NCBI GenBank assembly: GCA_035491955.1
Contig: DATJJU010000015.1
Location: forward strand, 30,440 to 94,439
DNA length: 64,000 bases
Source of the DNA: Minisyncoccota bacterium
GTDB taxonomy: Bacteria > Patescibacteriota > Minisyncoccia > Phycocordibacterales > UBA9973
Reading direction: 5' to 3'
The notes below the pieces were generated by a model that had not been told where the DNA came from, made no database searches, and was given only the letters and a program-made list of their open reading frames with translations. Made by a program: the position numbers and the translations under genes. This document shows positions 52,763 to 63,467 of the stretch, one piece after another; the first letter of the stretch is position 1; each line of letters starts with the position of its first letter.

Positions 52763-54064
52763 TTATTCTGTCTCAATCGAAAGGTTGCCGTTGGCTTTGA
52801 GATCGGAGGCGGGAGTGGTGGAAATAGTGCCGGTCATGCCGCGAGCAAACGCAGCGAGGCCGATCATGACAGCGTTATCGGTAGCGAGCCATGGTTCAGG
52901 AAATAGCACGGTAACACCAGAGAGTTTATTTTGCACTGCAAGAGAGAGCTGTTCGCGAAGAAATGAATTGCCTGCGACGCCTCCGCCAACGACGATAGTC
53001 TGAATATGAAATTCTTCGGCAGCGCGAAGTGTCTTCTTTATAATGACATCCACAACAGCATCTTCGAAGGCGCAAGCTAATGCCATTTTTTCATCATCAG
53101 TAACTTCGTGGCCGAGATCGCGAATGGTATAGAGCATCGCTGTTTTAATTCCGGAAAATGAGAAGTCATAATCACCTGAATGAATCATTGGACGAGGCAT
53201 TTCAAATTGCTGAGATTTTCCTGTTGTTCTGAATTCCTTTGCTAGTCTTGAAACAGCTGGTCCTCCTGGATATGGCAATCCAAGCATGCGCGCTACTTTA
53301 TCAAATGCTTCGCCAACGGCGTCGTCGCGAGTCTGCCCGATTTTTTTATAGTCACCGTAACTATCAGTAAGAACTAATTCGGTGTGCCCGCCTGAAACGA
53401 GCAATGCAAGGAGAGGGAATTGTAGTTCACGGAATTCGTATGTTTTTTGAATTTCCGACGCAGACGGAACAATATTCCCATTTTTCTGATCCTCCCGTGC
53501 AGTCCGCTGGGAGGTGCTGCCAGCAGACAAATGGGAATGTTGTGCAGTCTGGAAGGAGGAAATACCATTTTTTTCTACGACTGCAGCCGTTACTACATGT
53601 CCCTCCATATGATTAACAGCAATAATCGGAATACCCCACACAGCATTAAGAACTTTTGCAGCATTAATGCCTACCCATAATGCCGGCTCAAGACCTGGAC
53701 CTACTGTTACAGCGATGTAGTCGATATCAGGTTTTTCGTATGTATTAAAAAGATCGACAAAATCGTTTACCATTTCGTCTTCACGGGTGCAGATAGAGAG
53801 AATAGTCTCTCGCGCATCTGTACCAGATGCGCTGAGGGTAGTACCAAGCAACCCAGCCTGTCCCAAAGCCTCCTTCATAAGAGCCACAATCTTCTGTGCA
53901 TGCGCCCGTTTAGCCATAGCAGGGAAGACACCTCCATACTGGGCGTGGAGCTCTATCTGAGAAGCCAAAGCGTTGCCAAGAAGGGCAATAGCACCCTGAT
54001 CGGTATCTGCCAAGACGGCAATACCAGTCTCATCGCAGCTGGTTTCTATACTAAGAATTTTCAT
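52763..54064 (-). CDS. tsaD: tRNA N6-adenosine threonylcarbamoyltransferase TsaD (Kae1/YgjD) with a ~50-aa low-complexity insertion
   Basis: 'MKILSIETSCDETGIAVL', 'HMEGH', 'SGGHTEL', 'GGVAGN'. The insert 'QTAQHSHLSAGSTSQRTAREDQKNGNIVPSASEIQ' lies between the HxEGH and GGHT blocks. Confidence 0.88.
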   Translation of the reverse strand: MKILSIETSCDETGIAVLADTDQGAIALLGNALASQIELHAQYGGVFPAMAKRAHAQKIVALMKEALGQAGLLGTTLSASGTDARETILSICTREDEMVNDFVDLFNTYEKPDIDYIAVTVGPGLEPALWVGINAAKVLNAVWGIPIIAVNHMEGHVVTAAVVEKNGISSFQTAQHSHLSAGSTSQRTAREDQKNGNIVPSASEIQKTYEFRELQFPLLALLVSGGHTELVLTDSYGDYKKIGQTRDDAVGEAFDKVARMLGLPYPGGPAVSRLAKEFRTTGKSQQFEMPRPMIHSGDYDFSFSGIKTAMLYTIRDLGHEVTDDEKMALACAFEDAVVDVIIKKTLRAAEEFHIQTIVVGGGVAGNSFLREQLSLAVQNKLSGVTVLFPEPWLATDNAVMIGLAAFARGMTGTISTTPASDLKANGNLSIETE

Positions 54065-54136
54065 GGTCTAATGATAGCACATATTGACCAAGTGTAAAAT
54101 TGTGTTATTATATTAAAAAATTAATTTAATAAAACT

Positions 54137-54370
54137 ATGAGTACACAATTAGAATCATCGCCTGAATTGGAAAACATCTTAGCGCATATGGAAACAGATA
54201 AGCATTCCATCGCACCGTATCTCAATGGGTATGTTATTGCTCCAAACAGTAAAAAAGCTAAAAAAGCCGCCACGCTTAAACCAGAATCAAGACGCTCTAT
54301 TGCTGGGCATTCCGGCCACATTTTTGTCGAAAAGTCTGATTGGGAAAAAGTAAAAGATGTTCGAGTTTAA
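54137..54370 (+). CDS. hypothetical small protein (77 aa)
   Basis: ORF followed by a terminator at 54392-54420. Confidence 0.3.
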   Translation: MSTQLESSPELENILAHMETDKHSIAPYLNGYVIAPNSKKAKKAATLKPESRRSIAGHSGHIFVEKSDWEKVKDVRV

Positions 54371-54391
54371 AATTAAACTTAAACTAAAATG

Positions 54392-54420
54392 GTCCCCTTT
54401 ACCAAAAGGGGACTTTTTTC
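54392..54420 (+). terminator. intrinsic terminator
   Basis: GTCCCCTTT-acc-AAAAGGGGAC followed by TTTTTT. Confidence 0.7.
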
Positions 54421-54468
54421 TTGCCAAATTCTGAAATCGTGGTAATGTTTTGAAAAATTAACAACCAG

Positions 54469-55089
54469 ATGGAAAACAACAAACTCGCCCTTCACGGCCT
54501 GGCTGGGACTGGCAAGTCTCACACCGTTACAAATCTATTGGGGTATCATAAGGATCATACGCATTATTCCACAGGCGATACTGCTCGAGAGATTGCTAGG
54601 TGCCACGGCATGACAGTTGATGTCTATATGGTATACGCAAGAGATAACGGCATACCAATCGATAAAATATTGGATGATTCGCTCTGCGCGCTTAATGACA
54701 ATCCGACTCCTCATATTATTGATTCTCGTTTAGGGTTTTTCTTTCTCAAGCATGCCTACAAGGTGTATCTATTTGGAGAGCCGAGAGTGCTCGCCAAACG
54801 ACGTTGGAAGCAGTTACGAAAAGAAAACTATAAAGAGCATAAGCATCTTACTATTGCTGAAACTGAAAAGAAGATGGCAGAGAGGAATAAAAACGATATT
54901 ACAAAGTATCGGACCTTATACGGAGTAACCTGCAATGATTTCGTACACTACGATCTGATCATAGACACCACCAATCTTACTGTCGAACAGGTAACAACAA
55001 TCATTGATAGTAACTATTCGGCCTGGTGCAAAGGAGAAGCTCCTCGTCGCGCATTATATAAAAGAGTTGCTGATCCGGAATTCATATAA
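54469..55089 (+). CDS. cytidylate kinase-like (family 2) P-loop NMP kinase
   Basis: 'HGLAGTGKSH' P-loop and 'HYDLIIDTTNLTVEQV', characteristic of the cytidylate_kin2 family. Confidence 0.5.
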   Translation: MENNKLALHGLAGTGKSHTVTNLLGYHKDHTHYSTGDTAREIARCHGMTVDVYMVYARDNGIPIDKILDDSLCALNDNPTPHIIDSRLGFFFLKHAYKVYLFGEPRVLAKRRWKQLRKENYKEHKHLTIAETEKKMAERNKNDITKYRTLYGVTCNDFVHYDLIIDTTNLTVEQVTTIIDSNYSAWCKGEAPRRALYKRVADPEFI

Positions 55090-55147
55090 GTAAGTTGTTT
55101 TTTTGTTTTTTAAAATCCCCAGACGCAGATTGCGGTGGGGATTTTTT

Positions 55148-55753
55148 TTATCGCATGAGATAATCTCTTATCTTGCCGACAGTTTCGTAGAAGTGGCCAT
55201 TAAGATTTTCGAAGTGTCCTTCAGGCGGTACAAGCTCTATGCATTTTTTGATATTCATCTGCCAGGGTTCGGGCTGGTCGTATTCTTCTGCTTCATACAT
55301 CAGGAACTGTCTGTAGCTCTGAGGGGTTTTGAAGTCTTGAGGACGAGCAACCATTCTTCGATAGCGAACTTTTTTTGGTGCATCAATAGCTATTGGTTTG
55401 AAAACTGCATGAGGATATTTTTCGCGCAATTCTTGCAGATACATAAGTTCGCCAGGGCAGCGGATTGATTCAAGGATGTATACTCCCGGAATATTCTTCC
55501 AAAGAATATCGCTGTAGACTTTTTTTACCAACCATTCTGGCCCTTGGTCTTTTCGAATTTCATTGGCAAATTCTCCAAGTTCTGTTTGGCTGAGTGGCTC
55601 TCTTTGGTAGTCAGTGTAGAACAATCCTGTCAAAACCTCTCTGGCAGAAACAGACTTCATGCCAAGCTGTTTGCCGAGCTCAAGAGCAATGCTTGATTTG
55701 CCGGCTGCATTAGTGGCTGTAATGGGGGCGATTATTATACTGTCTTTTTTCAT
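55148..55753 (-). CDS. P-loop deoxynucleoside/nucleotide kinase-like protein
   Basis: 'APITATNAAGKSSIALEL' Walker A. An 'ILESIR' ERS-like motif and an Arg-rich lid 'KKVRYRRMVARPQD' resemble the dNK/dNMP kinase family. Confidence 0.45.
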   Translation of the reverse strand: MKKDSIIIAPITATNAAGKSSIALELGKQLGMKSVSAREVLTGLFYTDYQREPLSQTELGEFANEIRKDQGPEWLVKKVYSDILWKNIPGVYILESIRCPGELMYLQELREKYPHAVFKPIAIDAPKKVRYRRMVARPQDFKTPQSYRQFLMYEAEEYDQPEPWQMNIKKCIELVPPEGHFENLNGHFYETVGKIRDYLMR

Positions 55754-56263
55754 TGTCTCAGGTTTTTGCTTATTTTGCTTTTTTCAGGCAAAAAGTCAAT
55801 TTTGCACTTCACACAAAAATTCTGCTATATTCAATAAAACAAAGAACAAAATAATTATGGAGAAGAAAGTGAAGCAAAATCCATCGGACGAGGTACCAAA
55901 TGGATATGAAGAGATGACATATCTTAAGGAAGAAGGGGACTCATTTCCAATTTTTGAGCCTGCTATTAAAAATGAAAGAAACATACAAGAGTTGGTTAAA
56001 TTTGAACCAACACACTAATTAAGATATAAGGCACTCCCTGCGGGGCGCCTTTTTGTTTACAATCAGGTGTTATTGAACCTCAAGGGTCAGACACTATTGA
56101 CAAATATAAAAAACAGTTTATTATTTTAATATTCCGAAAATGGAATTATAGGGTGAAGAAATACATCCTCAATGGCGAGTTGCAACAAAAATCCGCTTGT
56201 TCCTGTGGCGGTTACTAGGAATAGTCCCGTATGGTGCTGGGACGATAAAATGCACATACAGTA

Positions 56264-57211
56264 ATGAAAATCTTATTTGTTCTTTTAGAAGAAAGCTTTA
56301 CTGACTGGCAGGTAGCAGTTCTTATCGCAGTATTTCTAATTGCTATATTTTGTATTTACAAAATATTCTTTAGCAAAGATAAAAAAGAAGATTCTACACC
56401 CTCTGATCTCGCTCTGTATTTAGCAGATGAAACGGGATGGGATGATGGTGAAAATAAGACTTCGGAACAAAAGCAGGAAGAAGTAAAAGAAACTATTCCA
56501 GAGCCGGATGAATACGTTGTAGATGAAAACGATGCGAATCTATTTCACAACAAACGCTACAGCGACTTCAGTCTTAGAATGGTTTTTGCAATATCTACTG
56601 TCAATAAAAAGGATGTGATGATATTGACTTCCTCATTACCTTTACAGTTCAACAAGAGTACCTTCAATATTGAAAAAAAGGAGTTACTCGCGACCATTCC
56701 TCAAATTGTTAATGTAACTAAGAGCGAAGATCACGGTATTGCTCTTCAAAAATCGCCCGCAAGTAAATGGGACGATATCAAGGATGCTATCCTTAGATTT
56801 TTCTTTATTCATATGCATCATGTATATGCGTGGAAATTTGAAAAGCAAATCGTACTCATTTCGACGGTTCCAAATCCCGATATGCTTAATTTTGAGATGC
56901 GTCTCGAAACGAAGTATCATCTTGAACTTGGCCGAAAGCTTTGCGCTATAAAAGGGATGGGTGGAAGCAGTAGTTTGCATGATGGACTTCCTATATGTAT
57001 GGATCATGATAAGCATTATGATTTTGGATTAGGAAAAGCAACGGCATATACCTGGAAAGAATTGCTTCCTAAAATTAAAAAGGTCTTTGAAGATTACTTT
57101 CCTGCAGGGGTTGAATTTAAAAGTGCTCCAAGTCAATACTCGGACGAAGATTTTCAGAGGATTCATCGTTCTCGTCATCACGACGATTTCTTTATGGAAT
57201 CACTTCGATAA
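56264..57211 (+). CDS. hypothetical membrane-anchored protein (N-terminal TM; His/Cys-containing C-terminal region)
   Basis: 315 aa. 'CMDHDKHYDF', 'HRSRHHDD'. Confidence 0.4.
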   Translation: MKILFVLLEESFTDWQVAVLIAVFLIAIFCIYKIFFSKDKKEDSTPSDLALYLADETGWDDGENKTSEQKQEEVKETIPEPDEYVVDENDANLFHNKRYSDFSLRMVFAISTVNKKDVMILTSSLPLQFNKSTFNIEKKELLATIPQIVNVTKSEDHGIALQKSPASKWDDIKDAILRFFFIHMHHVYAWKFEKQIVLISTVPNPDMLNFEMRLETKYHLELGRKLCAIKGMGGSSSLHDGLPICMDHDKHYDFGLGKATAYTWKELLPKIKKVFEDYFPAGVEFKSAPSQYSDEDFQRIHRSRHHDDFFMESLR

Positions 57212-57333
57212 ATCTAATTATTTAAATATGGCCATCTCTTTTATAAGAGATGGCTTTTTATTTTGAACAATAGGGTCAGGCACCATTGACTTTTATTGAT
57301 AATAAGGCAATATGATGGAAACTCATTTAAATT

Positions 57334-57786
57334 ATGGAACAAAAAGAAATAACTTTGAGATGCCTGCTTATGCCGGCTCAGACTCTCCACCTTTCTTTTT
57401 CACAAGAAAAGATCGACCCCGAACAAGATCGTTTTCAGGCAAAAAATCACCTTATGACTCAGTCTTGTTTTTTAAGAATTCTACCGTTCACAAAAGAGTC
57501 TGCATTTCAGATTGAACAGAAATGGATGAAAACGATATTCGAAGAAGGTCTCAAATGTCCAACATTCGGATACAATCTCTATGACTACATTTGGATATCA
57601 CCTGCGGCGAAGCAACAATATGGAAACCTTATGTTCCATTACAATGAAGCTGGGGGAATATTCCTTTCCCTTGTAGGGGAACTACTCCGTCGTCAGCAGA
57701 AAAATGGATTGATCGATGCTGCCGAAAACTCTGCCTGGTTTCTCGAAAACTATTCATCACTTCTACCGAAACAGGAAAGTGTTTGA
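57334..57786 (+). CDS. hypothetical protein
   Basis: 150-aa ORF. Confidence 0.35.
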   Translation: MEQKEITLRCLLMPAQTLHLSFSQEKIDPEQDRFQAKNHLMTQSCFLRILPFTKESAFQIEQKWMKTIFEEGLKCPTFGYNLYDYIWISPAAKQQYGNLMFHYNEAGGIFLSLVGELLRRQQKNGLIDAAENSAWFLENYSSLLPKQESV

Positions 57787-57826
57787 AGAAATTGAACTGA
57801 GGAATATAAAATTAAATCATTAAAAG

Positions 57827-58204
57827 ATGGGAAAGGTACTAGTAATTGCAATCGTTCTATTTTTTGTGATAAAGGAAATCCTTATTAGAAAAAGTAACAA
57901 GTTGGCAAAAGAGAATCTCGAGTTAAGAAGTGAGCTTCTACTAAAAGAAGCTAAATTAGAATTAGAGCACGAAGCAGGTGAAGATCCTTTCGAATTATTA
58001 TTAAAGGATCTCGAAGACAAGAATTTCACCAAAACTCAAAGTTCTGATTTTATTCAGAAGACACATGCAAAGATATTAAAGGCTATCGACTTAACACAAA
58101 GACTTTTAAAAATCTACAAAAAGGAGAAAAACATTTCTGGTATAGAAGAAGAAACTATGTATCTGAACCGATTACTGGAAATAAAGAAAAATCTTGAATC
58201 TTAA
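57827..58204 (+). CDS. hypothetical TM + coiled-coil protein
   Basis: An N-terminal TM helix with a Leu/Glu/Lys heptad-like remainder. A terminator lies at 58227-58262. Confidence 0.4.
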   Translation: MGKVLVIAIVLFFVIKEILIRKSNKLAKENLELRSELLLKEAKLELEHEAGEDPFELLLKDLEDKNFTKTQSSDFIQKTHAKILKAIDLTQRLLKIYKKEKNISGIEEETMYLNRLLEIKKNLES

Positions 58205-58226
58205 TAGCGACGCCTTTGCTATTATG

Positions 58227-58262
58227 ACCCTTACATTTTTATGATGTAAGGGTTTTTATTTT
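58227..58262 (+). terminator. intrinsic terminator
   Basis: ACCCTTACAT-ttttatg-ATGTAAGGGT followed by TTTTATTTT. Confidence 0.7.
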
Positions 58263-58276
58263 ATCAAAATATTCTT

Positions 58277-58352
58277 GGTGCGCGATACAGGAATCGAACC
58301 TGTGACCTCAGCAATGTCAATGCTGCGCTCTAACCATCTGAGCTAACCGCGC
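58277..58352 (-). tRNA. tRNA-Val (anticodon GAC), CCA encoded
   Basis: Minus-strand read GCGCGGTTAGCTCAGATGGTTAGAGCGCAGCATTGACATTGCTGAGGTCACAGGTTCGATTCCTGTATCGCGCACCA. Confidence 0.85.
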
Positions 58353-58391
58353 GAACGGTTGGTACCAGGCAAGACCTAGTACGGCAATCAG

Positions 58392-58421
58392 TTTGACAAA
58401 AAAAGTTGATTTAGGCAAACT
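58392..58421 (+). promoter_or_regulatory. conserved 30-nt upstream motif TTTGACAAAAAAaGttgATTTAGGCAaACT (copy 1)
   Basis: Near-identical to the copy at 59012-59041. It contains a perfect -35 TTGACA. Confidence 0.45.
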
Positions 58422-58444
58422 TAGGTAGAAAGGAACTTTATCAT

Positions 58445-58990
58445 ATGAACGAAACGGATTATTTCCGCAAAGATCCGCCAGAGGTAACTTTTGTAGAATA
58501 CCACCCAAGTAGGTTGCCTTACTGCACAAGCCCGCTTCTTCTTCATCGCAAGCCAAAGCCAAAATCGTATTGGATCGCTCCACACCCTGACATACTTCGC
58601 TGTATCAAGGAAAAGAATGACTTCTATCATTACGAAGTTTGGACATTGGAATACCTTAAGGAAGAATTCAAAAACGCAGGATTTTCTCAAAAGCTTAAAA
58701 ATCCAAAAAGCTTTGTCAGGTCCTGTCGGCTTCTTATTAGTAAAAGAATCGCACAAACACAAAAGCCTCTTGTAATTATTACATGGGGAGCAGTCATCAG
58801 ACTCGTGGCTCCGTCACTTGGGCAGGAGTTACCACGCGAGATTCTTTTTGAAAAAAATTTCTTTAAAGATTCTATTTTTGAAAAAACATTCATTTATTTT
58901 CAGGGAGGCAAACCTTTCCAAAAAGACGCCAACCCGATCTTAAATGACATCTCAAAACTTATCGTAAAAACAGAACTCGTATCCAATTAG
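58445..58990 (+). CDS. hypothetical protein
   Basis: 181-aa cytoplasmic ORF preceded by the shared motif. Confidence 0.4.
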   Translation: MNETDYFRKDPPEVTFVEYHPSRLPYCTSPLLLHRKPKPKSYWIAPHPDILRCIKEKNDFYHYEVWTLEYLKEEFKNAGFSQKLKNPKSFVRSCRLLISKRIAQTQKPLVIITWGAVIRLVAPSLGQELPREILFEKNFFKDSIFEKTFIYFQGGKPFQKDANPILNDISKLIVKTELVSN

Positions 58991-59011
58991 GGTACGGGTT
59001 TATTTTTATAA

Positions 59012-59041
59012 TTTGACAAAAAATGCGCATTTAGGCAGACT
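59012..59041 (+). promoter_or_regulatory. conserved 30-nt upstream motif (copy 2)
   Basis: TTTGACAAAAAAtGcgcATTTAGGCAgACT. Confidence 0.45.
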
Positions 59042-59058
59042 GAAAAAAATACATTGAT

Positions 59059-59520
59059 ATGGAGCAGTATGAATTTTCAGCAGTGTTTATTCCTTGGGAG
59101 AGGTTAAAATTCCCAGGAAAGTTAAATGGGCGCGGTATCGACTTCAGTCTTCCTGTTTATTGGGCGCATATCCCTGTCAGCATTGATCCTTTTCAGACTG
59201 TTGCTTTTGTTTTAGAGGAAGATGACTTCAATAATATTCCAGTATTACTGACCGAATTAACTCAAAGTATTATAAGAAATCAGGGCAAGGTGATAGTCTT
59301 TGGAACGAACGACCAGATCAAGTTAACCCTCTTTTTGTTTGACAAGGCATGTATGTCTACTAAAAAAGAGATGTCAGTTAAACTACAGCTGCATTACGGC
59401 AAAAAAGACAAAAGAGAAAGAGTTAGTCGCTACTATATTCAATGCGATGAACAAAGGGAAAGATCACAAATGGCTTATTTACTTGATGGAGAGTTTGAGA
59501 GCTTTTCTTCAACTAGCTAA
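59059..59520 (+). CDS. hypothetical protein
   Basis: 153-aa ORF preceded by the shared motif. Confidence 0.4.
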   Translation: MEQYEFSAVFIPWERLKFPGKLNGRGIDFSLPVYWAHIPVSIDPFQTVAFVLEEDDFNNIPVLLTELTQSIIRNQGKVIVFGTNDQIKLTLFLFDKACMSTKKEMSVKLQLHYGKKDKRERVSRYYIQCDEQRERSQMAYLLDGEFESFSSTS

Positions 59521-59616
59521 AATTACAGCCTCTAACCGTCTAGAAATTTCTAGACGGTTTACTTTTTTCATTTTTTATTTATAATACTGTCACATTACTT
59601 ACTCCAAGTAATAAAT

Positions 59617-59688
59617 GGCCCTATCGTCTAACGGTTAGGACGCCGGCTTTTCAAGCCGTTAATCGGGGTTCGATTCCCCGTAGGGTCA
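59617..59688 (+). tRNA. tRNA-Glu (anticodon UUC)
   Basis: GGCCCTATCGTCTAACGGTTAGGACGCCGGCTTTTCAAGCCGTTAATCGGGGTTCGATTCCCCGTAGGGTCA. Confidence 0.85.
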
Positions 59689-59693
59689 CACGC

Positions 59694-59726
59694 AAAAAAC
59701 CACCGCTCCTGTATTGGTGGTTTTTT
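59694..59726 (+). terminator. intrinsic terminator
   Basis: AAAAAACCACC...GGTGGTTTTTT. Confidence 0.6.
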
Positions 59727-59808
59727 GCATGGAGATCTAGGGGGTGACAATATAGCTCGTGACCGATTGCGTCCTTTACTATACAATCAAGCTATATAAA
59801 TTGATTGA

Positions 59809-60510
59809 GTGCTAACATTTATGAGTAAGCTTGAGGAAAATTTTAATAAATTTAAGGAGATTACCAGAGAGGAATTTTTTATTGCTGAGGAAATTAAAAA
59901 GCATGTAGAGATTACAGGTACCAGTACAATTCTCGATGTTGGGTGCGCTAGTGGAGACCTCTCAAGATCATTGGTAGGGGATTCAAGAAATATCACTTTC
60001 TTAGATGTAGATGAATTTAATTTTTCTCCTCAAGAAAAATTTATTCACTCTTCATTTGAAGATGCAGAAATTGATGAAAAGTATGATTTCATTTTAACTT
60101 CGCATGTCTGGGGTCATTTTTACAGAAACAATACTTTTGATTTTTGTTACAAGAAATGTCATGACTTGCTCAAAGACAGTGGGAAGTTAATCGTAGTCCA
60201 TAATTCAAACAATGATTTTATAGGGAAATTAATTGAATTCTCAAAAACCCTATTTAAGGAAATAGAATTCGATGTTTTCCTTGATCAATTTTTAGAAAAC
60301 GAAAACTATACTCAGCATTACTTTGATGTGCACTTTAAAGCAGAATCATTTGCAGAATTGGCAGAGCTTGTTCAAGTATTATTAGTTGTTCCTGACTCAC
60401 TGTATTACGAAAGAATTCAAGAGGTCGCTGACTTTTTGGAGAAGAATTTAGAGAAACCAGAGTTTCCAATCAATCAAAGACTTTTGGTTATAGAAAAGGG
60501 AGCTCACTAA
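59809..60510 (+). CDS. class I SAM-dependent methyltransferase
   Basis: Motif I 'ILDVGCASGDL'. Confidence 0.6.
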   Translation: MLTFMSKLEENFNKFKEITREEFFIAEEIKKHVEITGTSTILDVGCASGDLSRSLVGDSRNITFLDVDEFNFSPQEKFIHSSFEDAEIDEKYDFILTSHVWGHFYRNNTFDFCYKKCHDLLKDSGKLIVVHNSNNDFIGKLIEFSKTLFKEIEFDVFLDQFLENENYTQHYFDVHFKAESFAELAELVQVLLVVPDSLYYERIQEVADFLEKNLEKPEFPINQRLLVIEKGAH

Positions 60511-60625
60511 TAATGTACTTCCAGTGCTGACTATAATCATCAAATAAAAAACCGCCTTCATACAAAAGCGGTTCGGGGTATTTTTTCTAACTTTCCATTC
60601 AGTGATGGTCAATTATGTAACCATT

Positions 60626-61045
60626 TTATTTTTCTCTATACAGTATGGTCAGTCTGTTATCCTCATCAGGGTCGGCAGGAAGATCTGTTTTCTGCACAGG
60701 TTCGATTGATGCATCGTAGGGGCCGAACGACAATAAAAATAATGTTGTTTCGATTCTATCGGTGCTTAGAAAAGCAATATAGCTGTGCTTATACGGTGCT
60801 TCTTGCAGTCTTTCTCTTGTGCCATAAAAGACACGCAATGAGTCCTTAGCAGGGTCACCTTTTTTCAAGCGCAATACAACATAGTACAGTTCATCGTCAT
60901 CTCTTTGAGCGATGTACTGCTGGCAGTATCCCTTTGGGAGATTGTCCACCAACGGGATATGATCATCAAATCTAAGACGAAGATCTTGAGCATTTGTCGC
61001 CAATACTATAAAGGCCACAAAGAAGGTGGTAAGGAACTTTTTCAT
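60626..61045 (-). CDS. hypothetical secreted protein (signal peptide)
   Basis: 'MKKFLTTFFVAFIVLATNAQ' signal-like N-terminus. Confidence 0.4.
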   Translation of the reverse strand: MKKFLTTFFVAFIVLATNAQDLRLRFDDHIPLVDNLPKGYCQQYIAQRDDDELYYVVLRLKKGDPAKDSLRVFYGTRERLQEAPYKHSYIAFLSTDRIETTLFLLSFGPYDASIEPVQKTDLPADPDEDNRLTILYREK

Positions 61046-61149
61046 CGCATACAGTTTTTCTTACCATAGCGGAAAAATGGCCTCAGTGTCAAACAAATAA
61101 AAAACCCGCTATCGGATGTAATAGAGGGTCCTTATTCGTATACGGCAAA

Positions 61150-61278
61150 TTATCGTTGTATTTTGCCAATGATGCAGGCAATGGCTACTAGGAAGCCAAC
61201 GGCTACAAGGATGCGGAAGAAAATCATCGAAGCTTTTCCTATTCGCCCAAGAGGTTTTTCAAGTTCTTCAGTTTCCAT
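61150..61278 (-). CDS. possible small single-TM peptide (42 aa)
   Basis: Hand-read METEELEKPLGRIGKASMIFFRILVAVGFLVAIACIIGKIQR. Not in the ORF track. Confidence 0.25.
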   Translation of the reverse strand: METEELEKPLGRIGKASMIFFRILVAVGFLVAIACIIGKIQR

Positions 61279-61337
61279 GTCGATCTTTTTAAGTTCAGTA
61301 GTACTATATCATATATAAGTGTAAAAGTCAATGAATA

Positions 61338-62270
61338 ATGACTGATTCCTTTGTAAATAGAGCATATTATGGTACATTAGAACGCATGAAAAAATATCGT
61401 ATCCTCCGTTGGATCGGAGAAAAGTGGAATATCCCTCGCTTTGTGGTCATTATAGGATCACTTTTTGCTGCTATAGGACTTGTCTTTACGCTCGTCTTTT
61501 TCGGCATGCAATTCGGCGTATTTAATGTCAAAGGCTCTAGTGCCAGTAGAAATGCATCGCTAGGGACAGTACCAAAGTCTGTCATGACTAGTACATGCTT
61601 GCCATTGAGTACCGGTACGCCAAAAGCCTGTGATTGGGACAAAACTCAGGAATGGGCAGTGCTCAATAGCGCGCTTCAAAAAGACAGCAGCACTCTTGAT
61701 CAAGTTTCTAATCAAACGGGAGTGCCTGCGCGCATAATCGTTTCTGCTGTTGTCCCTGAACAGCTGCGTTACTTCACTTCTAATCGTGAAAGCTTCAAGA
61801 AATATTTTGAACCACTAGAAATTCTTTCTTCTTTGACGAAATTCTCACTCGGCGTATCTGGTATCAAGCAAGACACTGCTACTCAGATCGAGCAGTATGC
61901 CAATGATCCAACCAGTCCGTTTTATCCAGGACCAGAGATTGCACCGCTTATCGCGTATCCAGCAGGCGTTGATCATGACACAGAGCTCTACAATCGCCTG
62001 ACAGCCAAAGATCACTACTACTCATATTTGTACACTGCTATCTTTCTTAAAGAAATCGAAGCGCAGTGGTCAAAGTCTGGTTTCGATGTCAGTCAGCGTC
62101 CTGATGTTTTGGTGACGCTCTTCAATATTGGCTTCGGCGCATCACACCCTAATGCCAATCCGCAAGTGGCTGGCTCAGTCATTACGATCGGAGGACACGA
62201 CTATTCTTTCGGCGAGCTTGGCGTGATGTTCTATCAGTCCAATGATTTGCTCGACGTTTTCCCTCGCTAA
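61338..62270 (+). CDS. hypothetical membrane-anchored extracytoplasmic protein
   Basis: An N-terminal TM helix with a 250-aa soluble domain. Confidence 0.4.
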   Translation: MTDSFVNRAYYGTLERMKKYRILRWIGEKWNIPRFVVIIGSLFAAIGLVFTLVFFGMQFGVFNVKGSSASRNASLGTVPKSVMTSTCLPLSTGTPKACDWDKTQEWAVLNSALQKDSSTLDQVSNQTGVPARIIVSAVVPEQLRYFTSNRESFKKYFEPLEILSSLTKFSLGVSGIKQDTATQIEQYANDPTSPFYPGPEIAPLIAYPAGVDHDTELYNRLTAKDHYYSYLYTAIFLKEIEAQWSKSGFDVSQRPDVLVTLFNIGFGASHPNANPQVAGSVITIGGHDYSFGELGVMFYQSNDLLDVFPR

Positions 62271-62291
62271 TAGAGGTGATATAGTACTGCT

Positions 62292-63467
62292 ATGAATGAT
62301 CGAGAGGTTGAACAATTACTCGAAGCAGAAGCAAAAAGACAGCAGGATGTTGTTAATCTTATTGCTTCAGAAAACTATGCATCAGAGGATGTTCTAAAAG
62401 CGCTCGGCAGCACTCTTACCAATAAATACGCTGAAGGCTATCCAGGAGCTCGCTACTATGGCGGCAATGTTCATATTGATGCCATTGAAAATTTAGCTCA
62501 ACAGCGCGCATTAGAGCTGTTCAATCTTTCTCCTGCAGAATGGTCTGTAAATGTTCAAGCCCTTTCTGGTACTCCTGCCAATATGGCGGTCTATAGTGCA
62601 TTGCTACCGCACGACGGCGGTTCTATTATGGCGCTTTCGCTTGATCAGGGCGGGCATCTTAGTCATGGCCATGCCGTATCAATGACAGGGAAGCTGTGGA
62701 AGCAAATTCCATATACGCTTGATCCTGAAACAGAAATTATCAACCACGACATCGTGCGTGATATCGCTCTTAAAGAGAAGCCAAATATGATTGTGGCAGG
62801 ATACACCGCATACTCTCGTATTGTGGACTGGGACGCTTTCAGAGCCATTGCAGACGAATGTGACGCACTGCTGCACGTCGATGCTTCCCATATTGCCGGT
62901 CTGATTGCTGGCGGTGTCTATCCAAGCCCTTTTGCCTATGCTGATACGGTAGTGATGACTACGCACAAGACTTTGCGGGGCCCGAGAGGAGCATTGATTT
63001 TTTCACGCAAGCAGTTGTCAGACAAAATCAATAAGGCCGTATTTCCAGGCTTACAAGGCGGTCCGCATATGAACACTATTGCCGGTATTGCTGTAGCGCT
63101 ACACGAAGCTATGCAGCCGGAATTTCAGGCGCATGCACGACAGGTCATAGATAATGCAAAAGCCCTTGCTACTGCGCTAGAAGAAAAAGGCTGGCGTATT
63201 GTTTCTGGAGGTACTGACACGCACCTTTTCTTAGTTGATACATTCATACGAGGCATAGGCGGACAAGCGGCCAGCGATGCATTGGAGAAAGAGGGTATTA
63301 TTGTAAACAAAAATGCTATTCCATTCGATACGCGTTCGCCAATGGATCCATCAGGTATCCGCATCGGTACGCCGGCTGAAACAACGCGAGGGAAGAATGA
63401 AGAAGATATGCGCGCGATTGCAGAACGCATTGATAGTATTTTAAAGGTATTGGAACATGATAATTAA
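62292..63467 (+). CDS. glyA: serine hydroxymethyltransferase
   Basis: 'TNKYAEGYPGARYYGG', PLP-lysine 'THKTLRGPRG'. Confidence 0.93.
   Translation: MNDREVEQLLEAEAKRQQDVVNLIASENYASEDVLKALGSTLTNKYAEGYPGARYYGGNVHIDAIENLAQQRALELFNLSPAEWSVNVQALSGTPANMAVYSALLPHDGGSIMALSLDQGGHLSHGHAVSMTGKLWKQIPYTLDPETEIINHDIVRDIALKEKPNMIVAGYTAYSRIVDWDAFRAIADECDALLHVDASHIAGLIAGGVYPSPFAYADTVVMTTHKTLRGPRGALIFSRKQLSDKINKAVFPGLQGGPHMNTIAGIAVALHEAMQPEFQAHARQVIDNAKALATALEEKGWRIVSGGTDTHLFLVDTFIRGIGGQAASDALEKEGIIVNKNAIPFDTRSPMDPSGIRIGTPAETTRGKNEEDMRAIAERIDSILKVLEHDN

Follow-up and report, generated by a model that had tools for sequence, protein, structure and literature searches.

The stretch of DNA analysed here (the window) comprises 64,000 nucleotides of a metagenome-assembled genome of Candidatus Paceibacterota, from the candidate phyla radiation (CPR). 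Our subject is the part at 54.1–62.3 kb, between tsaD and glyA, where a valine and a glutamate transfer RNA (tRNA) gene point away from each other and enclose two small protein-coding genes (58445 and 59059, named after their start positions; NCBI locus tags VL576_03385 and VL576_03390), each of them preceded by a copy of the same 30-nucleotide motif. An earlier reading of this DNA (hereafter the sequence-only reading) had taken it for a tRNA-bounded accessory island of orphan genes. We consider it quite probable that the locus is instead a conserved, lineage-specific and fast-evolving feature of the Paceibacteria with a doubled promoter–gene unit, the motif being a promoter that is probably shared with the tRNA-Val gene. 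The two tRNA genes lie where they had been placed (calls by ARAGORN and Rfam, with 69.8 bits for tRNA-Val in Rfam), and they interrupt the run of protein-coding genes as follows:

58276–58352, minus strand: tRNA-Val(GAC), transcribed away from the motif, its 5' end 37 nt from the dyad (ARAGORN, Rfam).
58390–58421, both strands: motif copy 1 as a 32-bp dyad (AGTTTGACAAAAAAAGTTGATTTAGGCAAACT), conserved in relatives and self-complementary at 22 of 32 positions.
58393–58398 and 58416–58421, plus strand: predicted forward promoter of copy 1 (-35 TTGACA, 17-nt spacer, -10 CAAACT), which would drive 58445.
58418–58413 and 58398–58390, minus strand: predicted reverse promoter of copy 1 (-35 TTGCCT, extended -10 TGT-CAAACT), pointing at tRNA-Val.
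58445–58990, plus strand: gene 58445, 181 residues, type A, predicted to be cytoplasmic and alpha/beta.
58973–59001, plus strand: terminator of 58445, a 12-bp stem followed by a T-run.
59010–59041, plus strand: motif copy 2 (AATTTGACAAAAAATGCGCATTTAGGCAGACT), with -35 TTGACA at 59013–59018 and -10 CAGACT at 59036–59041.
59059–59520, plus strand: gene 59059, 153 residues, type B, a putative diverged tandem paralogue of 58445.
59534–59559, plus strand: terminator of 59059 (hairpin scan), overlapping the tRNA-Glu promoter.
59558–59585, plus strand: putative tRNA-Glu promoter, TTTACT-N16-TATAAT, read from the sequence.
59617–59689, plus strand: tRNA-Glu(TTC) (ARAGORN, Rfam).

The two 30-mers (58392–58421 and 59012–59041) are spaced by 620 bp and agree at 25 of 30 positions (83%), with an exact TTGACA in both; a degenerate pattern of the 30-mer matches the window twice and 100 shuffled versions of it not once, and neither half of the motif was found to recur elsewhere in the 64 kb. 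In this respect the pair is as it had been described. The distance from the motif to the ATG, which had been given as equal for both genes, amounts to 23 nt at 58445 against 17 nt at 59059 (17–28 nt in relatives). We infer that the motif acts as a promoter of the sigma-70 type; its -35 box is perfect, its spacer measures 17 nt and its weak -10 box keeps the critical A2 and T6: CAAACT and CAGACT each match TATAAT at three of six positions (A2, A4 and T6), and a promoter scan that needed at least four matches of six in each hexamer did not call the motif. The other exact intergenic TTGACA boxes of the window are paired with TATACT, TATTAT or TATGGT, which indicates that this organism uses sigma-70-like promoters and that the -10 box of the motif is atypically weak for it. 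Driven by copies of one promoter, 58445 and 59059 would be transcribed alike; of the two explanations that had been proposed for the repeated motif, a common regulator or a duplicated promoter, it is the latter that survives.

Relatives were obtained from a TsaD-anchored scan of 185,579 species genomes, which returned about 36 CPR genomes with TsaD 40–71% identical to that of the window (the genome of the window itself is outside this collection, where its top TsaD match is 71% identical), and were supplemented with L085, L086, L092 and L097, found by a motif scan of metagenomes, and with L102, L103 and L104–106, found through protein homologues. In L002, L005, L006, L010, L011, L013, L023 and L025 the tRNA-Val(gac) and tRNA-Glu(ttc) genes are divergent, 606–674 bp apart and a few kilobases from tsaD; the pair is likewise present in L086, L092, L097, L102 and L103–106, and L007 and L016 carry the pair in inverted orientation. 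A single open reading frame (ORF) lies between the two tRNA genes in all of these genomes. In those from the TsaD-anchored scan it encodes 110–189 residues on the tRNA-Glu strand, and over the relatives with divergent tRNA genes the spacing is about 610–750 bp. In L024 (8073–8303) the divergent tRNA genes are just 83 bp apart with no gene between them, so that the gene is dispensable in at least one relative. The inter-tRNA segment of the window, with its 1264 bp and two genes, is unusual by comparison; none of the relatives compared has two motif copies or two units. The homologues of 59059 in L025 and of 58445 in L002 occupy the same slot, which makes the segment as such ancestral. The tRNA-Val gene encodes its 3' CCA (GCGCACCA), and the tRNA-Glu gene appears to be without an encoded CCA (it continues ...GGGTCAC-acg). 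A resemblance to the tRNA-Glu promoter at the junction of the two units (about 58990–59011) is of low complexity, and nothing is claimed for it.

The full layout, shared by at least ten Paceibacteria/Nomurabacteria relatives, consists of tRNA-Val, the motif in the form AGTTTGACAAAAAAA-N3/4-(A/T)TTTAGGCAAACT, one gene of 146–181 residues, a terminator, a conserved tRNA-Glu promoter and tRNA-Glu. The motif is identical outside three to four central bases in L002, L025, L085, L086, L092, L097, L102 and L104–106 (the copies upstream of the genes of L002, TTTGACAAAAAAATGCATTTTAGGCAAACT, and L025, TTTGACAAAAAAATCGATTTTAGGCAAACT, are nearly identical), and L103 has a variant with two further changes in the A-tract; the TTGACA is exact in every motif-bearing relative, as it is in both copies of the window, and all of these relatives have tRNA-Val beside the motif. 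When metagenomes were scanned with the 19-base core (TTGACAAAAAA-N6-TTTAGGCA), 17 of the 21 hits lacked the remaining motif and lay in unrelated contexts, and the full AGTTTGACAAAAAAA-N3-A(T/A)TTTAGGCAAACT was present in the other four (L085, L086, L092 and L097), each abutting tRNA-Val(gac), with tRNA-Glu about 610–690 bp away wherever the contig extends far enough. The motif is thus, by this comparison of sequences, specific to the locus, and is not a generic promoter found upstream of many unrelated genes. More distant relatives have, at the orthologous position, TTGACA-N17 followed by CAAAAT (L005), CACAAT (L013) or CATAAT (L006), and in L011, L023, L016 and L010 TTGCTT or TTGCCA, then TGgTATTAT, TATAAA or TGtTATAAT; in this series of substitutions the motif behaves as a promoter would (-35 TTGACA, 17-nt spacer, weak -10).

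Majority-base agreement, computed in 20-nt windows over six relatives, is 0.96 for the motif, 0.85–0.94 for the tRNA-Glu promoter including its spacer (the block GGTTTACTTTTT..ATTTTTATTTATAATAC, 85–94% conserved) and about 0.3–0.6 inside the ORF. In this clade, thus, tRNA promoters have near-invariant spacers, an observation in keeping with the motif being itself a tRNA promoter. Together with its two flanking bases, copy 1 forms a 32-bp imperfect palindrome (58390–58421), absent from the sequence-only reading, in which 11 of 16 pairs are complementary (P about 3e-4 to 6e-3). Its minus strand has the sequence TTGCCT-N14-TGT-CAAACT, in which a 17-nt spacer separates a -35-like box from an extended -10 box directed towards tRNA-Val, and the motif probably serves also as an overlapping divergent promoter for that gene. 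In L025 and L103 the tRNA-Val 5' end and the ATG are separated by no more than 68 and 66 nt, and no other -10-like hexamer was found in the 15–18 nt between motif and tRNA-Val, so that the two promoters would have to overlap there. The reverse -10 box lies 15–38 nt from tRNA-Val, comparable to the 31 nt of tRNA-Glu and the 23 nt of tRNA-Thr in the window, and a conserved CCGTAC box is located at the predicted tRNA-Val start position. In copy 2 the dyad has decayed to 18 of 32 positions; its minus strand reads CTGCCT-N14-TGT-CAAATT, with no tRNA on that side.

In the mechanism that we propose, a single stretch of DNA would contain two fully overlapping divergent promoters, one in the direction of 58445 and the other in the direction of tRNA-Val, to which RNA polymerase could bind in either orientation, each binding event excluding the other. 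This double duty, and the service to a tRNA gene, would explain a near-invariant spacer beside a protein that has diverged to 25–50% identity. Copy 2 would have kept its forward promoter, its reverse half decaying because no tRNA lies there. The divergent promoters of bacteria are classed as back-to-back, overlapping or face-to-face. As in the overlapping class, the opposite genes share a short intergenic region (66–92 nt here) and two polymerase sites are predicted on the same DNA, one direction of which should exclude the other; unlike typical members of that class, the overlap here is complete and symmetric (each -10 box overlaps the -35 box of the other promoter by 3 bp), a tRNA gene is one of the partners and different genera of an uncultured lineage have kept the arrangement. 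This suggests that in a streamlined genome two divergent promoters can be packed compactly and symmetrically into 32 bp. It also provides a rare, comparatively supported view of promoter anatomy in uncultured CPR, with a canonical -35 box, a degenerate -10 box and conserved spacers at tRNA-linked promoters. In another class, the bidirectional promoters by -10 symmetry described by Warman, Grainger and colleagues (PMC12825309), the -10 elements overlap and the divergent starts are mostly 18 bp apart (also 10 or 23). The likeness lies in pseudo-symmetrical DNA with which RNA polymerase can engage in either orientation, as we predict here; the -10 hexamers of our motif, at 58390–58395 on the minus strand and 58416–58421 on the plus strand, imply starts about 46 bp apart, which is outside the geometry that defines the class.

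The proteins encoded between the tRNA genes belong to a very small family. In word-indexed searches with single proteins, 58445 and 59059 returned only themselves, a result that was misleading since tblastn on the syntenic loci of relatives later found homologues, as did a full HMMER search; the description of the two genes as orphans does not hold. The identity of 58445 is 52% to the protein of L085, 33% to L103/P0006 and 26–27% to L002/P0003 and L102/P0004, and type A also includes P0005–P0008 and L104; 59059 is 38% identical to the inter-tRNA ORF of L025 (tblastn) and 32% to that of L086, and type B also includes L013. The L097 protein is intermediate between the two types. In profile searches, a set of 5.8 billion proteins yielded four, and 1.84 billion cluster representatives yielded nine hits, of which two are spurious long repeat proteins. 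With about eight clusters among billions of proteins, this very small orphan family offers a tidy case for the study of gene birth and turnover in reduced genomes. When eight type A sequences were aligned by hhalign with four of type B, the probability was 92.5% (E-value 5e-7, 126 collinear columns); on omission of the window proteins from one side or the other it was 95% and 92%, a reversed control gave 0%, and over all runs the values ranged over 92–95%, E-values of 5e-7 to 2e-8 and 124–135 collinear columns. An iterative hidden Markov model search of a set containing decoys joined the types through L097 and L086, and the same blocks occur in the same order in both: an N-terminal strand (vFIEY in one, vFIPW in the other), LP, YW..IP, a central K.lvvF..D strand and YYV.F. 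These comparisons argue, with moderate strength, for 58445 and 59059 being old tandem paralogues of one very rare and fast-evolving family.

Neither protein matched a family in searches of Pfam, PHROG, PADLOC and NCBIfam; no signal peptide or transmembrane (TM) segment is visible in their sequences, and no catalytic signature was found. Their AlphaFold2 models are both poor: that of 58445 alternates beta and alpha elements (predicted local distance difference test, pLDDT, 55; predicted template modelling score, pTM, 0.55), and that of 59059 has a pLDDT of 38. A lead towards a TIR domain, from weak MyD88 hits, was dropped, as it vanished with a richer profile and had no support in Pfam. While the inter-tRNA protein diverges fast, valyl-tRNA synthetase (ValRS), GlyA and the protein of gene 61338 are 80%, 77% and 72% identical in the same relatives. 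This divergence, a copy number of 0, 1 or 2 among relatives (two in the window) and the absence from L024 suggest a dispensable accessory factor and not a core-metabolism enzyme; our best guess, made from sequence features, is a factor that acts inside the cell in an accessory role, is subject to diversifying or relaxed selection and would be expressed along with the tRNAs. Among the CPR (or Patescibacteria) there are lineage-restricted, fast-evolving small hypothetical families without Pfam matches, which keep their position while their sequences diverge strongly. The inter-tRNA family resembles these in its size, its narrow clade, its fixed position and its lack of a Pfam match, and differs from them in that it is linked to a single fixed inter-tRNA slot and a single conserved promoter, with 0, 1 or 2 copies.

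Several observations weigh against the reading of the locus as a doubled unit with a promoter shared by tRNA-Val. Promoter activity, forward as well as reverse, is argued from sequence and orthology. A different tRNA-Val promoter could lie nearer the tRNA in the window (TTGCCG-N17-TACCAA), and L086 has a TACTAT box close to tRNA-Val. Copy 2 retains the conserved spacer (the A-tract and ATTTAGG) with no tRNA to serve, which double duty does not fully cover and which a bound factor or gene conversion could explain. As for the proteins, neither a direct BLASTP comparison of 58445 with 59059 nor the first hhalign runs, with thin profiles of two to three sequences, found a link between them, and the homology is drawn from thin profiles (effective number of sequences about 2–2.5). 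Finally, outside the 30-mer the two 620-bp units have no DNA similarity, which would fit an event of some age as well as capture of the second unit from a genome with the other type.

The 32-bp dyad might act mainly as the operator of a dimeric regulator, which would co-ordinate tRNA-Val with the small gene and might be the inter-tRNA protein itself, controlling its own promoter; protein binding, more than a double promoter role, would then account for the conservation of the dyad. The length of the palindrome (14-nt arms matched at 11 of 14 positions), its invariance across relatives down to the spacer positions and the retention of the spacer by copy 2 would all be expected of such a site. 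We nevertheless regard it as unlikely: the half-sites AGTTTG and CAAACT are 26 bp apart from centre to centre (about 2.5 helical turns), which places them on opposite faces of the helix, an ill fit for a simple dimer; neither protein was found to contain a helix-turn-helix or any other DNA-binding domain; distant relatives have ordinary promoters in the place of the motif; and the spacer of the plain tRNA-Glu promoter is equally conserved, so that in this clade a conserved spacer is nothing unusual for a tRNA promoter. A bolder version, which we hold to be a little less likely still, would make of the palindrome the operator of a switch coupling tRNA-Val transcription to a clade-specific, rapidly diversifying intracellular family of zero to two copies, whose members might bind the palindrome or act in conflicts between phage and host; in the doubled unit one would then see a moment in the diversification of cassettes at a tRNA-anchored hotspot. 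That the dyad works as an RNA hairpin (a leader, an attenuator or a small RNA) and not as DNA is the least credible alternative, and we give it hardly any weight: although the two arms of the repeat might pair in a transcript, only a weak hairpin is predicted (-3.2 and -4.6 kcal/mol, z-scores -0.05 and -1.2) and copy 2 forms none, Rfam matched only tRNAs even at E-values up to 1, and there is no upstream promoter to transcribe through the dyad.

The promoter–gene–terminator unit occurs twice in tandem in the window, with a period of 620 bp and in the same orientation, and could have arisen by an old duplication or by capture of a second allele, 58445 and 59059 then representing two old sub-types of one family. 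Capture from a relative of the other type, through recombination with the conserved sequences of tRNA-Glu and of the promoter as anchors, in what would be a hotspot of cassette exchange, is a possibility to be taken seriously, if well short of an even chance. Each relative has one type only (A in L002, L085, L102, L103 and L104; B in L025, L086 and L013) and all of these except L013 (TTGACA-N17-CACAAT) share the 32-bp promoter motif; the conserved tRNA genes around the gene could serve as anchors, and the coding DNA of the two units is unrelated, yet their promoters are 83% identical. Against it, no relative with two units was found, and both copies in the window read ATTTAGG where most relatives have TTTTAGG, a single-base argument which weakly favours derivation of copy 2 from copy 1, or homogenisation with it, within this lineage. 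A horizontally acquired island or mobile element integrated at a tRNA gene, whether the whole of 54.1–62.3 kb or the inter-tRNA segment, is very improbable. It is true that tRNA genes stand here, as they do at tRNA-associated islands, beside poorly conserved genes of lower guanine-plus-cytosine (GC) content, that many genes of the stretch have no recognisable family, that the mean gene GC at 54.1–61.3 kb is 0.385 against 0.431 elsewhere in the window (standard deviation 0.038), and that the slot following tRNA-Glu differs among relatives, with a defence-like ATPase in L102. However, hypothetical genes of equally low GC occur elsewhere in the window (for instance 31029, with 0.335, and 27929, with 0.342), and scans of the ORFs at 52.2–63.5 kb against Pfam, PHROGs and NCBIfam found no integrase, recombinase or transposase. 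The 3' 23–25 nt of tRNA-Glu and of tRNA-Val each occur once in the window (up to three mismatches), that is, without the attachment (att) repeat of such islands. The 5' ends of the two tRNAs face inward, so that the segment between them is at neither tRNA's 3' end, where these islands insert. At least ten relatives have orthologues of the inter-tRNA gene and of its promoter at this place, with order and orientation unchanged, and the wider backbone order is common to L102, L103 and L104. For the inter-tRNA pair the island reading is thus largely refuted, to judge from sequence comparison, and what had been singled out as the likeliest place for an undescribed co-regulated system is a conserved clade locus with one extra tandem unit, and not a multi-gene system. 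A false lead is thereby removed, the tRNA-bounded "island" being core architecture of a Paceibacteria clade. The locus opens no major question; it is an ordinary case, whose modest points are the symmetric 32-bp promoter and a rare family in a fixed slot between two tRNA genes.

On both sides of the tRNA cassette, variable and conserved parts alternate:

54137–58204, both strands: segment between tsaD and tRNA-Val, with fast-evolving genes whose position is partly conserved.
59809–61278, both strands: variable slot after tRNA-Glu, with methyltransferase 59809 (59809–60510), signal-peptide protein 60626 (minus strand) and the 42-residue TM peptide 61150 (minus strand).
61338–62270, plus strand: gene 61338, 310 residues with an N-terminal TM segment, a conserved backbone gene and not an accessory one.
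62292–63467: glyA, after 61338.
From 63457: folD, overlapping the last 11 nt of glyA and running past the window end (64000).

The ORFs listed in the sequence-only reading exist and the terminators are where it had claimed them: strong terminator-like hairpins follow 54137, 56264, 57827, 58445, 59059 and the methyltransferase gene (20 in the scan against about 10 expected). Its description of the run as unrecognisable applies to many of the ORFs; 54469 (archaeal-type (d)CMP-kinase-like), 55148 (AAA_18 kinase) and 59809 (class I S-adenosylmethionine methyltransferase) belong to families recognised in Pfam and NCBIfam. The segment before tRNA-Val holds the 77-residue ORF 54137, 54469, 55148 (minus strand), the membrane protein 56264, 57334 and the TM/coiled-coil protein 57827. 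Homologues lying close to tsaD or to the two tRNA genes were found for 54137 in L003 (beside tsaD), for 54469 in L002, for 55148 in L025, L005 and L103, for 56264 in L029 and, weakly, for 57334 in L006 and L103; the segment measures 1–8 kb in relatives and is mostly unmatched. On the far side of tsaD, all relatives have ValRS, a PrsW-like gene and then tRNA-Phe and tRNA-Arg.

Only some of the filler genes that separate tsaD from tRNA-Val and the slot directly after tRNA-Glu are variable; the backbone shared with L102, L103 and L104/L105 includes the kinases, the tRNA pair, the 61338 homologue, (glyA-)folD, GT2, VTT, TrxB and FtsZ. No homologue of 59809, 60626 or 61150 was found in any relative compared; in their place there are a glyoxalase (L103), an AAA_15/AAA_21 ATPase pair (L102) or two small ORFs (L104). 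The pair in L102 (980–2907) consists of a 181-residue protein and a 459-residue SMC_N/AAA_15/AAA_21 ATPase; its resemblance to anti-phage defence cargo suggests that the slot is a small variable hotspot. Methyltransferase 59809, whose GC of 0.326 is nearly the lowest in the window and which hits the methyltransferase part of PADLOC mad2 (E-value 1e-12), is, of all genes in the stretch, the strongest candidate for true acquisition. The pVip-kinase, dCTPase and mad2 model hits of the kinase and methyltransferase genes are of domain level only, and a 19/22 match to the T-arm and acceptor of tRNA-Val at 60695–60716 (plus strand), inside ORF 60626 (minus strand), is inverted and on the wrong side for an att site, and was judged to be chance. 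Gene 61338, which had been counted among the accessory genes, has no match in Pfam, NCBIfam or the PDB; its homologues in L102 and L103 are 70–72% identical and directly upstream of folD, and it always directly precedes one-carbon genes (glyA-folD or folD). The glyA-folD pair also follows in L104 and L105.

Two minor observations concern the upstream end of the stretch. TsaD (52763–54064, 433 residues) is matched by its Pfam model in three stretches, and has an insertion of about 50–90 residues around residues 160–215 which is absent from the non-CPR hits (about 320 residues) of the same scan. Upstream of the adjacent genes 54137 and 54469, two 41-nt stretches (54084–54124 and 54421–54461) are 73% identical and read TTGACC-N14-TGT-TATTAT and TTGCCA-N14-TGG-TAATGT, each followed by TT(A/G)AAAAATTAA; look-alike promoter or leader regions of neighbouring small genes may therefore be a recurring feature here.

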